Source: Felis catus
Taxonomy: Eukaryota
Direction: 5' to 3'
Assembly (NCBI RefSeq): GCF_018350175.1
Contig: NC_058368.1
Span: 49,911,815-49,975,814 of the forward strand
Length of the DNA stretch: 64,000 nucleotides
The position numbers were made by a program, and so were the translations under genes. Shown piece by piece: positions 29,959 to 59,199 of the stretch (the first letter of the stretch is position 1; the number at the start of each line of letters is the position of its first letter). Below the pieces are notes generated by a model. The model was not told where the DNA came from, did not search any database, and was given only the letters and a program-made list of their open reading frames with translations.

Positions 29959-30111
29959 CTGAAACTGTGGAATGGTCATTTCAAAGGACTTGTTCTTCAC
30001 TTGGCCTGAATGATCCATCACCTTCAGCAACACTGCAACGTAAGGATACTTGAGAGATCTGCAACTGTCTGAGCTCACTGCCATCCCCAGTTTCCACTGA
30101 AAATCTACAAG
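29959..30111 (-). CDS. COMMD6: COMMD6 coding exon 3 (COMM domain)
   Basis: ttacAG|LVDFQWKLGMAVSSDSCRSLKYPYVAVLLKVMDHSGQVKNKSFEMTIPQFQ|GTTTGT; 153 nt, phase 0. Confidence 0.97.
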
Positions 30112-45225: not shown

Positions 45226-46161
45226 CCCCCCAAAGAGGTTCAATTTATTAAAGCCCTATAATCAATATAATTCAGCTTCAGCACATCTTACTCAACTAAA
45301 CATATGATTTGGTGTAAGTGAATGGATACAATAATTTATAAAAGACTGAATCAAAGTACACTAACCCAATAACTCAGAGCAAAGCCAGATAAGGGGGTTG
45401 ATTAATCTTTCTGAGTGCCCCCTACTTCCCAGGAATCCTCGGAAGCAATAGCATTTGGAGACAGATGACAGAGAGCAGTCAATGGACATCCCTCTGCCCT
45501 TTTATTTCTTATCTCATCCCTTTCTTACATTTTGTTTGGGCCTGGGAAACTCCTGACCTAAAATGCTCTAGTTTTAGTACTGTTCCTCTGGGAAATGTGT
45601 TATTAGGCTATCTGCCTAAAAATAATTTATTACCTGGAACAGGACAGGAACACTTAGAACAAAGAGGCATAAAAATATTTTAAAATTCAAATTCTTATTT
45701 CTGGCATAAAAAAGGTAGACATTGAAAGGTTAAAGGCGGTATACTTTCCAGCTACAAAGTAACTTTTTTAAAGACTTCGAACATGTTTGCAGCTTTACCT
45801 TTGTATACTTTAACAATTTCTTCTCTTTATATAGCACACGCCACAATACTGTGTACCTGGCTTTGAATACACTCTCAGCACGAACAGTAATTGCTCTGTC
45901 CGCTTTGGGCTGGAGTGGGTGGTGCAGGTTCAATTACAATGGCAGCAGCTACTGCGTCCGGGGCAAAGTGGAAAGAGCAATTCTAGGTGTCGGGACGAAA
46001 GTCACAGACTCGCAGACACAGGCCTTGGACTAGGGGGACAGCTGAGGAAGGCTCACGGGGGCTTGGTCCCAGGCTGACGGAGGCAGGAGGAAGGCCAGGT
46101 GCTACCGCCAGCCCCTTGCCCAGCTGACGCCGGCAGAGGGCGGGGCCGCCCATTCACTCAC

Positions 46162-46173
46162 CTGGTTGGTGAC
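46162..46173 (-). CDS. COMMD6: COMMD6 coding exon 2, 12-nt microexon (VTNQ)
   Basis: ccatttcAG|GTCACCAACCAG|GTGAGT; completes the 85-aa frame (42+12+153+51 nt). Confidence 0.92.
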
Positions 46174-46262
46174 CTGAAATGGAAGCAGAGAACACAATTT
46201 AGGGAAAGATCCCTCTAGCTCCAGAGCCCCGCTGCCCCGGCTCGTCTGAGGACAGGACTTAC

Positions 46263-46304
46263 CTTGGACTTGGCATCCAGTTGCGGCTCGCCGCAGTCCT
46301 CCAT
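46263..46304 (-). CDS. COMMD6: COMMD6 coding exon 1 (MEDCGEPQLDAKSK)
   Basis: ggtATGG...AAG|GTAAGT; similar to human MEASSEPPLDAKSD. Confidence 0.92.
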
Positions 46305-47349
46305 ACCAAACCGCTAGGGCTCACACCACCAACCGATCAGGTGGTCTGTCCCCGGGCGCCAGCACTTCCGCTTCCTCCTCCCGCCCCTCGCGGACCGGCG
46401 CACGCAGCGGAAGTAGGGGGACTTGAAACAAACATATTTGTGTAACTCACCCTGAGTGTTAATTAAATATTAGTTTCAAGGAGACACTCAGCAGCAAGGA
46501 AATTTCTATGGGGGAAAGGTCCTAAGATTTTGGAGATACCTTATGAAGTGATGGATAGATTAACTTCAGTATGCCTCCTTCCCCTTCTGACCTGGAGACG
46601 TGGACTCTTCCGGTCTGGGCCCACAGCGCTTTTTGCGCGCGTGAGCTGGCGGGCGCGCGACTAATGTATCTCCACAAAGTTCAAGAACAGCTGGATCACC
46701 ACACCCTTTCCTCCCACAGAAGTCTTTGGGCTGGGAGATCCCAGTGGTAACTATAGTTATATGATTAGCTTTTGTCACTCGGATTTACTGCACTGGCCCA
46801 GCTGCGGTGGGATGGGGATGCTATTCTTTATCACGCTGCCACTGACCTACTCCAGCCCTCTACGTGACCGTGGGAATAGCCTTCTCATCTGGTCTTCTTT
46901 CCTCTACGCAGCTCACATCCATTCTACCCAGTAGCTAAAGCGACTTCTCTTTCTCGCCAAATTTTTATTTTAAAAAACGCAAATTTTTGGAGAAAAGTTG
47001 CAAAAGCAGTTCAATGAACATCTCTATACCCTTCATCTAGATTCACCAACTTAACATTTTAACCATTTGCTTTACCTTTAGCTCCATACACGGTAATGAT
47101 GGCACCTCATCTCTAAATACTTGAGCCTGTGGCGCATTTCCTAAGTCATCACAATACTACCACAATACTACTACACAGATTTAACACTGACAAAATACTG
47201 GGATCTAACACGTCGGGCAAGTTCAAATTTCTCCAGTGGTCTCAACGACATTCTTTAAAACTTTCCAACCCTACCCACCCCCAGAATCTAATCAAGAACT
47301 ACTTGTTGAATTTAGTTATTGTGTCTGCTCCGTCTCTTCAAATCTAGAA

Positions 47350-47832: not shown

Positions 47833-48709
47833 TAAAATTCTGCCTACTGCAAACAGTCATAGGATTGTTGGAGAATTACATTAGTTAACACATGTAAAAC
47901 CCCTAGAATTGTGCCTGGCATGTAACACTGAGAATCTGTGCCAAACAGCCACTGACTCAAGGTTATTGGACATGATTAAAAGTCCTAACTGGCTTGGGAA
48001 CATAGCGCTGAATTAATCCAGTGGTTTCTTTCCTATAAAGGAAACTCTGGATAGGACACTGGTGATGCATCCCACTGGTATGTGCATCAATTCTGTTTGT
48101 AAGGGAATATTTCTCTGAAGTTCTTGGTTGCCATCATATTATGATCCATGTCAAGATTATGCTCCTTGGAGGGCTGCATGCCTGCACACACGCATACACA
48201 CACATACACACATACACACACTCAAACACTTCTTAATTACATAAAAATGCTTCCAAAAGGTGAAAAGATGATATAAAGAAGTTAATTTTTGTGTTTTTCA
48301 CACAAAAAGGTTTTTTTGTATGTTTTTTTGTTTTGTTTTGTTTTTTTAGACATAAGTGTCCCTTTTCAAAAATCTATTGATAAAATTTGGGGAGAGTAAG
48401 ATGTCAGTAGAGTTCAGGCCAATCTTGGCCCATCGTTAATCTTGTTCTTGCGCTCTTGACACTTCATCAGCACATAGGATCAAGTGCTTTTTTTTAAGAC
48501 CTCCATCTTATAAAAGATCAGAATGTATGCAAGCTTCAGACTTGAAAAACACAGATTTTGTGAATAGAGTCAAGAAAAATGCTAAAATTAAAGATGTATA
48601 GGCATAACTTCTGCTTCATTTATATTTATTTTTTGTGATTATGTGTAAATAAGACATAAATAAGAAAACGTTTTTTTGGAACTGTTTTTTAAAAATTATT
48701 TTACTTATT

Positions 48710-48947
48710 TTTTTTAAATTTTTTTCAATGTTTTTTTATTTATTTTTGGGACAGAGAGAGACAGAGCATGAACAGGGGAGGGGCAGAGAGAGAGGGAGAC
48801 ACAGAATCGGAAACAGGCTCCAGGCTCCGAGCCATCAGCCCAGAGCCTGACGCGGGGCTCAAACTCATGGACCGCGAGATCGTGACCTGGCTGAAGTCGG
48901 ACGCTTAACCGACTGCGCCACCCAGGCGCCCCATTTTACTTATTTTT

Positions 48948-49977: not shown

Positions 49978-51237
49978 TGTGGTAGGCAGAATAATGGGCC
50001 CCCAAAGATGTGTTAAAAGATAAACTGAGGCCAATCAAAAATTTTAAGAGTTTATTTGAGCAAAAATCGATTCCAATTGGGCAGTGCCATACCAGAAGTC
50101 GGTTAGGAACACTCCACTGATGGGAGCTCAGACAGAGATTTCAGAGAGAAATGGTAGAAGCAAAGTAAGGAAAATATTGATTGGCGGTGGCTTAAGCCTA
50201 GTTGTCTAGTTATGATTTGGTTGCCCTTAGTATTTTGGTCCCATAACCTTGAGGCATTTGTAGGCACAGATTTTGGTTTGCTTACGTAGGCCACCACAGA
50301 GCCATCCCAGTCTGATGGCCTCCATGTTTAATTAATTTAACAAATATTCACTTCTAAATCCCCAGAATCTATGAAAATACTGTGTTACATAGCAAGGGAG
50401 CATTAAATTTACAGATGGAATTAAGTTTGCTAATCAGAGAATCTTTAAAAAGAATTTTTTTAAGTTTATTTATTTTGAGAGAGAGAAAGCACAAGTGGGG
50501 GAGGGGCAGAAAGAGAGGTGAGAGGGAGAATTCCAAGCAGGCTCCGTGCTGCCAGCACAGACAGAGCCCAATGTTGGGCTTGAACCCCTGAACTATGAGA
50601 CTGTGACCTGAACCAAAGTTGGATGCTTAACCAACTGAGCCACCTAGGCTCTCCTCAGAGAATCTTTTTTTTTTTTTTAATTTTTTTTTCCAACATTTTT
50701 ATTTATTTTTGGGACAGAGAGAGACAGAGCATGAACGGGGGAGGGGCAGAGAGAGAGGGAGACACAGAATTGGAAACAGGCCCCAGGCTCCGAGCCATCA
50801 GCCCAGAGCCTGACGCGGGGCTCAAACTCACGGACCGCGAGATCGTGACCTGGCTGAAGTCGGACGCTTAACCGACTGCGCCACCCAGGCGCCCCAAGAG
50901 AATCTTAAAATAAGGACATGTTCCCGGATTACTGAGGTGCCCAGTGTAATCACAATGGCCCTTATATGTAGAAGATGGTGACAGAGGAGTTAGAGTCAGA
51001 GAGAAAGTGTCAGTGGTGGAGGCCAAGAGCCAAGGAAGGCAGGCAGATTCTTGAAGCTGGAAAAGGAATGAAAATGAGTTCTCCCATCCAGGAGTCGAGC
51101 CTGCTAACACCTTGACTTTAGCCCAGTGAGACCAGTTTTAGACTTCTGACCTTCAGACTGTAAGATAACAAATTTCTGTTTTTCAAGTCACAGAGTTTGT
51201 GGAAATTTGTTCCAGCAGTAATAGGAAACCATGACAG
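49978..51237 (+). mobile_element. MLT1-like LTR carrying a nested LTR-like element (50011-50342) and two SINEs (~50452-50655, ~50667-50895, minus)
   Basis: tgtggtaggcagaataatgggcccccaaagatg start and ccagcagtaataggaaacc end; nested element bounded by tgttaaa...tttaaca. Confidence 0.8.
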
Positions 51238-54465: not shown

Positions 54466-54579
54466 CAGAAATGCAAGACAACACGCAGAAATACAAGCTC
54501 ATTAAGGCCTAGACTTGGAACAGAAATGCAAGACAACACGCAGAAATACAAGCTCATTAAGGCCTAGACTTGGAACAGA
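54466..54579. repeat. Perfect 55-bp tandem duplication within an MLT1-like LTR
   Basis: cagaaatgcaagacaacacgcagaaatacaagctcattaaggcctagacttggaa x2, plus caga. Confidence 0.95.
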
Positions 54580-56256: not shown

Positions 56257-56964
56257 GTAAATGCACTCTACCCCAAGTCAGATCTCTGAAGTTATCATTG
56301 ACAATTTAGGCTCACCAAAGGGATATCCTATTAAAATGGTTTCTATTTAATTTGTGCCTCCTTCTCCATCTCCGTGGTTTATTGCCTTAATTCTCTCATC
56401 ATTTCACCCTTGCAAATATCCTACATTATTGACAAATTAAGTTTCTGCATATCTGATGATTCTCTTCATTCCTCAAGTATTTATCGAGCATCTATTATGT
56501 ATCAGGCACTGGGGTAGGCTTTGGGGAAACAGTGTGAAGAATTTAAAAAGACACTCCTGCAAGCCTCATGGAATTTACAGGCTGGTGGAAGAGAGATATG
56601 AAAATCCTGCTTAAAAGCCTTCAGTGGTTCCCTGCTGTTTACAGAGTGAAGCCCAGATGTCTTGATGGGACTGTCCCTCCTTACCCCTCCAGCATCACCT
56701 CCAACCAAAGCCCTTCAACCTTGCAGGCTCTGCAGCCACAGTGCACACTTCACTTCTTCTGAGCATAATCAGATATGCAGAAACTTAATTTGTCAATAAT
56801 GTAGGAAATTGCAAGAGTGAAATGATAGAATTAAGGCAATAACCATGGAGATGGAGAACGAGGCACAGATTAAACAGAAACCGTTTTAAGAGGGTATCCC
56901 TTTGGTGAGCTGAAATTGTCAATGACAACTCCAGAGATTTGACCTGGGGTAGAGTGCATATTAC
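56257..56964. repeat. ~200-bp inverted repeat (arms ~56257-56460 and ~56765-56964; spacer ~300 bp)
   Basis: Arms align as reverse complements end to end; perfect 39-bp core 56419-56457 vs 56768-56806. Confidence 0.93.
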
Positions 56965-57283: not shown

Positions 57284-57844
57284 TCTGCAATAGCAGATGA
57301 GGCTGACATATCACCTCTGCACCGTGGCAAAGGAGCTTTTGGGACTTGACTCCTGGGCATTCACTGGCCTTCAGGCCTCCTGATGCATGGCAATCCCGTT
57401 GTTCGCTCTTAGAATAGGACTCAGTGGCGCGCCCCCTAGCGCCTCCAGCTGAAGCTGCAGGAACGGGAGGGCGCCCGCGAGCATGAGGTCCCAGGCCCGC
57501 GCAAGGCGCAGGCGTAGCACGCGAGCGCTAGGCTCGGATGGGAACAGTCCAAGTGAGAGGGGAGCTAGCTGTGGATTCAGATTCTTTTTCCTTTTTCAGT
57601 ACGGAGATGGCTTATCTTGTCTTCTCCGATTGTATCTTAATTTAAAATGTAAGACTTGAGTGTGGCTCTGCAGGGAAGGAGAAAAGCACTAGAGTGTTTT
57701 GTCAAGCTGTTTTTCGTTCTTCAGCACCCCTCCCTGGGGGGGGGGGGTGGAGGAGGGTTGGACGGTCCCAGGTCAGAGCGCGCGGGGGCGGAAGCGGCGG
57801 CGGCTGCTGCTGTCAGAGCTGGAGAGGGGCCGGGCGGAGCGGCC

Positions 57845-57886
57845 ATGGAGGGTCAGCGTTGGCTGCCGCTGGAGGCCAATCCCGAG
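57845..57886 (+). CDS. UCHL3: Ubiquitin C-terminal hydrolase L3, coding exon 1 (MEGQRWLPLEANPE)
   Basis: gccATGG Kozak context; matches the UCHL3 N-terminus; GAG|GTGTGC donor. Confidence 0.96.
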
Positions 57887-58003
57887 GTGTGCGCTGCTTG
57901 GATCTCGGCTTGAGGCCGCGGGCATGGGCGGAGGGAAGCGGGATGCCGCGGCTAGTCCAGAGCAGTTTGTTTCTATAAATTGTGTTCTCTGTTCCGTTTT
58001 CAG

Positions 58004-58015
58004 GTCACCAACCAG
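58004..58015 (+). CDS. UCHL3: UCHL3 coding exon 2, 12-nt microexon (VTNQ); later exons lie beyond the window
   Basis: ttttcAG|GTCACCAACCAG|GTGAGT; continues ...ANPE-VTNQ. Confidence 0.94.
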
Positions 58016-59199
58016 GTGAGTGAGGTGTCTGTCGCTGGGGACCCCGGAGCCCTCCCTGCCTGCCTGCACCTCTGATCTTCCTAGGAATCTGGAATTAGAT
58101 TCAGTGAGGGCCCCTCTTGCTTTGCTTCATACGGGTGTGCCCCCTTTACGGCCGTATCCCTACCACCTAATTCCTGGAGATGCTCCCGGCTATTTCAGCC
58201 CTTCCTCTGGGGCCATTCCCCTGTCATCCTGGGGTCTGGGTCTGAGGCTTGTGGCACATTGACCCTGTATTCCTATTTCTCTTCCCTCTTCGTTTTGCCT
58301 CCTGCTAGTGCCAATTCCATAATTTCCCAACTCCTGTACCTTCTGGGTGACTAATTTGTCTACACTACCTGACTCCAAGCTTTGAAAACTCGCCCACCCA
58401 GTCCTTGTAATTTCATCCACCGCCTGCACTATGAAATCATCTTCCAATCATCTTCTCTTGCTCCATCAAGTCACTTGTCTTCCCCGCCACGCCCCCTTTC
58501 TCTTCCAGTCCCTTAAAACTGGAATTTAGTTGTTTCTATACCATAGAAAGCTCAGTATAATAGTTCCCACGCCATTCTTGGCCCACCTACAAACACTTCA
58601 AGTTCGTCTGGGTATTGAAGGTTCAAGTTTGGGGTGGGAAACATCTCCCAGCCACTCCATTAAAAGTTATTGTGCTACCAGGTATAAACTTTTGATTTGC
58701 TCAGGTGTATTTTATCTTAACCTGTTTTAAATTCTCATCAGCTCATTTACTTTTTATGGCCCTTTTAGCTTGTCATCTGATGTACGTTCCCGCCCCCCCC
58801 CCCATAATTTTCCTTTTCATCATCAAGGAATAATGATTCATCACATACTTGATTTTTGATTTTCAAAGCTTGTAGAAAAATTCCTTATATACAGAAAGTA
58901 GATAGAAACGCTTGATCTTAATGTTGACAGTAAATCTTTCATCTTATGCAGTTTATTGTATGTTTTTGAAATGACTCTGGAACTCTTGTCTCTTTAGTAA
59001 TCCTGAGATGTACAAAACTTAAAACCCTGCATATATCTTTTATATTGTGCTTTAGATGGCATTCTCTATATGCATGCTAATTTTCTTTTGTTTCCCCCTT
59101 TTGAAATTTGCTGTTCATTTTTTCCTTAAAATAGTTTCACCCCTTTGTAAAGAGAGAAAAATCTTTAGGCTGAAGAAATCATTTGCACCTTCTGATTTA

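Follow-up and report, generated by a model that had tools for sequence, protein, structure and literature searches.

How do two unrelated neighbouring genes come to share a very small exon together with the splice signals around it? Within the 64,000-nt stretch of the Felis catus genome analysed here (the window), a 48-bp block of COMMD6 recurs in UCHL3 with 44/48 positions identical, the two copies lying 11.8 kb apart as inverted neighbours (Table 1). The names of the two genes, proposed in a first-pass annotation made from the letters of the sequence, are supported by PDB matches (COMMD6 exon 3 to PDB COMMD6, UCHL3 exon 1 to PDB 1UCH) and by the 100% identity of COMMD6 exon 3 to a Felis catus protein; COMMD6 exon 1 matches the N-terminus of the Felis catus protein P0099, which covers exons 1-2. 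That annotation offered two explanations for the block, strong selection on a shared microexon-definition element or recurrent gene conversion between the inverted copies. We conclude that the block is the best-kept remnant of an inverted duplicate spanning exons 1 and 2 and intron 1 of UCHL3. This main cause, a duplication that replaced the 5' end of COMMD6, is absent from the earlier claims.

Table 1. Features of COMMD6 and UCHL3 in the window (strand given relative to the window; a dot marks features without strand).
Feature	Position	Strand	Remark
COMMD6 last coding exon, with stop codon	28100..28150	-	
COMMD6 exon 3, 153 nt, COMM domain core	29959..30111	-	common to non-mammalian COMMD6
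COMMD6 CpG-rich promoter region, GC 0.57, CpG o/e 0.62	45900..46700	.	not alignable to UCHL3 promoter
48-bp block, COMMD6 copy	46154..46201	-	16-mer, pyrimidine tract, acceptor, 12-nt exon, donor
COMMD6 exon 2, 12 nt, VTNQ	46162..46173	-	alternatively included in annotations
COMMD6 intron 1, 89 nt	46174..46262	-	alignable to UCHL3 intron 1 over just its final ~28 nt
COMMD6 exon 1 coding part, MEDCGEPQLDAKSK, 42 nt	46263..46304	-	very probably a diverged copy of UCHL3 exon 1
UCHL3 CpG-rich promoter, GC 0.59, CpG o/e 0.64	57400..58300	.	
UCHL3 exon 1 coding part, MEGQRWLPLEANPE, 42 nt	57845..57886	+	probable source of the duplication
UCHL3 intron 1, 117 nt	57887..58003	+	no AG from -40 to -2
48-bp block, UCHL3 copy	57976..58023	+	
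UCHL3 exon 2, 12 nt, VTNQ	58004..58015	+	within Peptidase_C12, domain start at residue 6

Match between the two genes

A blastn comparison of 40-52 kb (minus strand) with 52-64 kb (plus strand) recovered the block at E 4e-14, the only other matches being a CA repeat and a T-rich 19-mer (E 0.12). Its local alignment score was 80, against 14.3 ± 2.8 in 1000 shuffles. The mismatches fall at block positions 17, 19, 21 and 22, and the perfect runs within the block are 16 and 26 bp long, the latter being the longest. The identity claimed at first pass, 44/48 overall and 16/16 over the intronic bases, is thus confirmed, as is the contrast drawn there with the surrounding DNA: the coding parts of exon 1 are 26/42 identical (62%; p=0.001 against shuffles), and the 5' part of intron 1 aligns no better than shuffles (p=0.53). 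Alignments of the DNA upstream of both genes, promoters included (p=0.56 and 0.76), and of intron 2 (p=0.70 and 0.054) also stayed within the range of shuffled sequence. Over the last 27 intron bases, the DNA of cat COMMD6 and cat UCHL3 differs by 3 edits when gaps are allowed.

The two genes have a common plan: exon 1 contributes 42 coding nt, the intron behind it is short and in phase 0, and the 12-nt exon that follows is phase 0-0 and encodes VTNQ in both, so that skipping of exon 2 would keep the frame in either gene, as had been pointed out. In COMMD6, exon 2 falls where the Pfam COMM model begins. The window yielded no UCHL3 exon 3.

Origin of the COMMD6 leader

We estimate the probability that the COMMD6 5' end arose by duplication of the UCHL3 5' end at roughly 0.9, based on homology, exon structure, distribution across taxa and drift in orthologues. 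The curated human, mouse and bovine COMMD6 proteins bear the leader (PDB chains of 77 and 85 aa), and it is UCHL3-like in marsupials as well as placentals (for instance brushtail possum MEGLCQQPQEAKSEVTNQ vs UCHL3 MEGQRWLPLEANPEVTNQ). In 10/10 therian COMMD6 proteins, the first 18 aa scored 25-45 against UCHL3 and no higher than 6-14 against 11 non-mammalian COMMD6 linkers. Identity of the exon-1 peptide to UCHL3 reaches 7/14 in marsupials and is 4/14 in the cat; taken alone, this peptide is significant against shuffles in 8/11 proteins, the cat being among the three others (p=0.078). All 12 non-mammalian COMMD6 proteins tested are 193-209 aa long, without VTNQ or a UCHL3-like leader, and Pfam COMM_HN was detected in 2/3 non-mammalian and 0/3 mammalian COMMD6. 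As in a chimeric gene, the 5' part of COMMD6 is homologous to exons of another gene with the same intron positions, and the borrowed part is absent from outgroup recipients and kept in the donor, the UCHL3 outgroup being platypus.

UCHL3 residues 6-18 lie inside the Peptidase_C12 model and are kept in platypus UCHL3, which points to UCHL3 as the donor. The duplication is probably older than the marsupial-placental split. The platypus COMMD6 model has no UCHL3-like leader; echidna COMMD6 (80 aa, starting with MEG) has a 13-aa leader scoring 9 vs 1, too weak to date the event earlier. The contrary reading, which does without a duplication, derives the leader, as a remnant, from the last HN-linker exon of COMMD6 itself and puts its likeness to UCHL3 down to convergence between two strong microexon cassettes, can draw on tuatara EDAKNVATVGQ and shark EDAKHMLTVGQ, which resemble placental LDAKSKVTNQ. 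We consider it very improbable, given the scores of the leader against UCHL3 and against the linkers and because equal exon lengths, start-codon context and intronic identity would be unexpected under convergence.

Several non-mammalian COMMD6 linkers (P0214, P0196, P0200) end in DAK...TVGQ or alike, near the placental DAK..VTNQ. The borrowed leader may have drifted toward the linker that was lost, the mouse having VTGQ.

Under the duplication reading, UCHL3 exon 1, intron 1 and the 12-nt exon 2 with its donor would have been copied and inverted before the marsupial-placental split, and the copy would have landed in the neighbouring COMMD6, upstream of the COMM-domain exon. The phase-0 exon could then have been spliced in frame and the HN-domain exons lost, COMMD6 becoming a COMM-only protein of ~85 aa with a UCHL3-derived leader. 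COMMD6 exon 1 would have drifted because it no longer builds a UCH fold, whereas the likeness of the 48 bp would have been kept mainly by the demands of a 12-nt exon, whose splicing depends on a strong acceptor, a clean pyrimidine tract and a donor close to consensus. Such an event would account for the known absence of the HN domain in human COMMD6, a domain present in fish and amphibians (PMC6089597, PMC10187114, PMC10274727, PMC11189303). Searches of the window with tblastn and hmmsearch found no remnants of HN exons, so the insertion site is not seen; decay of breakpoints and replaced exons is expected at such an age.

The upstream first exons of two primate COMMD6 models (P0149, P0156) and one bat model (P0132) lie antisense in the UCHL3 CpG island, mapping to 57442-57407 and 57846-57732 (minus strand). 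This suggests that the island is a two-way promoter, possibly the original COMMD6 promoter, and would fit an older shared two-way promoter with the cassette inserted ~11 kb downstream.

The intron tract in other mammals

Orthologous DNA was bounded from protein records that read through intron 1 (spurious ORFs and gene models), using translations only. The '-like' taxon labels of these records were assigned by exon-1 likeness to named proteins, and the forced changes in the 16-mer are ungapped lower bounds. In the frame of exon 2, the read-through is KLCSLLPFQ in cat COMMD6 and KLCSLFRFQ in cat UCHL3. A carnivoran-like COMMD6 record (P0258) also gives KLCSLLPFQ, with 0 forced changes in the 16-mer. 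At least 2 changes are forced in bovid-like COMMD6 (P0262, P0264; ELCFLLPFQ), at least 3 in bat-like COMMD6 (P0263; KLCFTVPFQ), at least 6, ungapped, in the shrew (P0038; MTCLLLSLQ) and at least 7, again ungapped, in a dasyurid model (P0178; LNYFLFPLQ). On the UCHL3 side, catarrhine-like records read LKRVLCFVFRSPTR in the next frame, with at least 2 changes. Because other mammals show 2-7 forced changes, we read the perfect 16/16 match as a carnivoran state, which would be under partial constraint; judged from these translations, the 16-mer does not appear to be an invariant or fixed splicing element.

Two groups of hits were set aside. A representative search gave seven matches, of which four (P0257, P0259-P0261) were discarded as long, unrelated proteins, and four metagenome contig loci from a degenerate-pattern scan (L001-L004) were AT-rich coding DNA with no blastn match to the window, attributed to chance.

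Ordinary signal makes up much of the block, namely the acceptor, the coding exon and a donor that matches the consensus at 8/9 positions in both genes (donor scores are matches to a 9-position consensus). The two bases after the six-base donor vary in COMMD6, where vole and horse models read VSG as against VSE. Strong selection on a shared microexon element, as first proposed, is plausible for acceptor, exon and donor and does not extend to an invariant 16-mer. Free divergence of the block in other mammals, named at the outset as evidence against that proposal, is partly seen in the forced changes of the 16-mer.

Conversion or constraint

Recurrent conversion would homogenise the 48-bp cassette within each mammalian lineage and keep both exons co-regulated. 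It would fit the 44/48 identity in cat, the identical synonymous sites and the inverted arrangement of the neighbours, and conversion is long-lived in three known gene pairs, one of them inverted (PMC2720389). However, block position 21 is gene-specific across orders, C being forced in 5/6 COMMD6 read-throughs (C or G in the shrew) and G in 3/3 catarrhine-like UCHL3 read-throughs, with both cat genes in agreement; a segment evolving in concert should hold no such lasting gene-specific site. Synonymous sites are unchanged in catarrhine-like UCHL3 as well, so that no conversion is needed to explain them.

Exon 2 of COMMD6 has also drifted. Junctions could be scored in 145 of the 277 COMMD6-type proteins fetched; with isoforms, '-like' copies and close relatives among them, the records are not independent: 78 have VTNQ, 28 are without the exon and 39 carry another peptide (13 VTSQ, 10 VTCQ, 4 VTDQ, 4 VTGQ and 8 others). 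UCHL3, by comparison, has VTNQ in 10/12 readable proteins, drawn from one further match and the 15 members listed for a cluster of 136; the two odd models, P0231 (VGAQ) and P0240 (otter), were counted and are taken as gene-model artefacts, not skipping. The mouse pair, with VTGQ in COMMD6 and VTNQ in UCHL3, largely refutes recurrent conversion. Paralogues that are closer to each other than to their orthologues, the usual mark of such a process, are found (or tie) on the cat intron tract and not for the mouse exon. Position 21 and the lasting changes in COMMD6 exon 2 thus argue against recurrent conversion, which we now regard as improbable.

A more restrained alternative keeps the same duplication and the same splice constraint and adds one or a few UCHL3-to-COMMD6 conversions. 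These would date either to the placental stem or to the carnivoran lineage, in the latter case as a very short tract spanning the 16-mer. Its main attraction is the closeness of the cat paralogues. Over the last 27 intron bases, cat COMMD6 and cat UCHL3 are 2 edits apart, gapped, by a peptide-based bound (the intron tracts of both genes were compared within cat alone), and by the same bound cat COMMD6 differs from its orthologues by at least 2 (bovid-like), 3 (bat-like), 5 (dasyurid) and 7 (shrew). The cat paralogues are therefore as close as the nearest non-carnivoran COMMD6 orthologue and closer than the cat-dasyurid pair, which paralogues of that age should resemble. Block position 12 fits as well: T is forced there in bovid-like, bat-like, shrew and dasyurid COMMD6, whereas cat COMMD6 has the UCHL3 base, as the carnivoran-like P0258 also allows, so that the site would have moved to the UCHL3 state.

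Identity this high has a low probability under constraint alone. A hand estimate puts the rate of the intron tract near half of neutral; it uses 8 forced changes at 25 sites, assumed branch lengths and the premise that some three quarters of changes show up in the residues. At 0.4-0.5 of the neutral rate, P(≥21/25 identical) is 0.01-0.12 and P(15/15) is 0.0006-0.006, in a model with a uniform rate and assumed path lengths of 0.9-1.1. Further points in its favour are the distance of 11.8 kb between the copies and the conversion seen in yeast with very short homology at a very low rate, although in mammals conversion becomes efficient at roughly 200 bp of identity (PMC3924818). Against this stand four points: position 12 is a single informative transition that could arise in parallel; a carnivoran tract must end before position 17, which limits it to under ~20 bp; choosing the block for its identity exaggerates how surprising that identity is; and for marsupials the tract is known from a single gene model (P0178), where evolution may have been fast. 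On balance, we hold duplication followed by maintenance through constraint alone to be about an even bet, and occasional conversion on top of it to be a serious contender that falls short of even odds. A bolder version, in which ultra-short conversion (sub-50-bp) is ongoing, UCHL3 resets the splice signals of COMMD6 and the COMMD6 exon serves as a tissue switch skipped in neurons, seems unlikely to us.

Splicing of the 12-nt exon

Among the records listed, forms that skip the exon account for 28/145 in COMMD6 and 0/12 in UCHL3. COMMD6 is annotated both with and without exon 2 in marsupials, carnivores, horses, camels, bats, rodents, lagomorphs and armadillo, and some of the skipped models may reflect a missed microexon. 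In UCHL3, skipping would delete four residues inside the catalytic domain. By these annotation tallies, the cassette appears near-constitutive in UCHL3 and alternative in COMMD6, and co-regulated splicing of the two microexons, raised at first pass, is unsupported by the annotated isoforms.

The exon-1 donors may contribute to this difference. The COMMD6 donor is strong, matching 8/9 consensus positions, and that of cat UCHL3 is weak (5/9), a weakness that may be partly cat-specific, as VSA is read there in other records. Possibly a strong exon-1 donor competes for exon 3 and a weak one cannot, so that the same ancestral cassette would behave in two ways. COMMD6 intron 1 carries a branch-point-like motif at -26, where none scored in cat UCHL3, and has no AG from -41 to -2.

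In the mouse, a 12-nt Commd6 exon is a catalogued alternative event (VastDB MmuEX0012381), near fully included in ES cells and with a large change vs neurons (PMC10946425). From the gene and the length, we infer that this event is the COMMD6 exon described here; the stated size of the change suggests that neurons skip it. Unlike SRRM4-type neural microexons, the mouse exon is included in ES cells and probably less so in neurons, and the published mouse data do not fit neural-specific inclusion. SRRM4-type exons have a UGC near the acceptor and a distant branch point, at a median of 45 nt (PMC12871342).

A TGC at -14 (46185-46187, minus strand) is found in COMMD6 only, created by one of the four bases that differ between the block copies. 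UGC is a motif of the SRRM4 type, yet the mouse data point to neuronal skipping.

Four RNA runs on 45900-46700 yielded 23 reads and one contig, with no junctions or loose ends listed, which tells neither for nor against inclusion. Most of these few reads fell not on exons but on 45900-46115, at the start of COMMD6 intron 2. They represent either RNA that was not spliced or a longer form of exon 2 such as that of the deer and buffalo models P0107 and P0142.

A set of COMMD6-like proteins from Old World monkeys (P0039, P0067, P0069, P0078, P0337) is without the microexon and has other changes in common. They look like a putative retrocopy of a skipped mRNA, which would show that skipping in the germline is old.

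Comparison with known systems

Partial duplication or capture of 5' exons has given rise to chimeric genes such as HYDIN2 (PMC5345166) and the tandem-duplication chimeras of Drosophila (PMC5460883). As in those cases, a partial gene copy would have given its first exons to another gene, with an in-frame product. Unlike the cases described there, COMMD6 is a single-copy Commander subunit, the event would be at least of therian age, and it would have removed a whole domain without making an extra gene. The four COMMD6 structure papers cited above describe the same HN loss; in the passages where COMMD6 is named, they give no mechanism and leave UCHL3 unmentioned.

The pairs BMP8A/B, DDX19A/B and TUBG1/2 show long-term concerted evolution, with regions >97% identical that group by species (PMC2720389). 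COMMD6 and UCHL3 resemble them as old neighbour duplicates in which an intron-containing segment is more alike than its flanks, and differ from them in that the shared block is 48 bp long and contains a position that stays gene-specific across orders. The main text of PMC2720389 names neither gene. Constitutive micro-exons are known for short introns on either side and for strong splice sites (PMC4317164); the frame-preserving 12-nt exon described here likewise has strong sites and a short intron upstream.

A full-text search that covered few subscription journals located no paper on a UCHL3 origin of the COMMD6 5' end, and the papers listed as naming both genes (15 of 16) deal with other topics, by titles and the starts of abstracts. 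The duplication origin appears unreported in the literature searched; VastDB or genome-browser annotation may already show the self-match. The new part is the finding of two descendants of one microexon cassette in unrelated genes, and it gives a mechanism and a rough date for the unexplained absence of the HN domain from mammalian COMMD6 in the Commander ring. It also amounts to a natural experiment, in which one ancestral 12-nt cassette, still ~90% identical in cat, appears to have two inclusion behaviours, and exchanging parts between the copies could reveal the few bases, or the flanking donors, on which microexon inclusion depends. Short conversion, if confirmed, would have worked on far less homology than is usual in mammals.

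Other features of the locus

Between the two genes, a 209-bp inverted repeat with 89% identity (56257-56964) resembles a small DNA transposon. A 231-bp direct repeat with 95% identity (48705-48933 and 50668-50896) probably represents young SINE copies; at 54466-54579, 55 bp are duplicated in tandem without a mismatch. Positions 1-2000 form a strong CpG island (GC 0.69, CpG o/e 0.85), which, going by the gene order, is possibly the TBC1D4 promoter. Pig models (P0134-P0139) join COMMD6 exons to TBC1D4, and a baboon model (P0225) joins UCHL3 to LMO7. Either transcripts read through at both flanks of the locus, or these models are artefacts of annotation.
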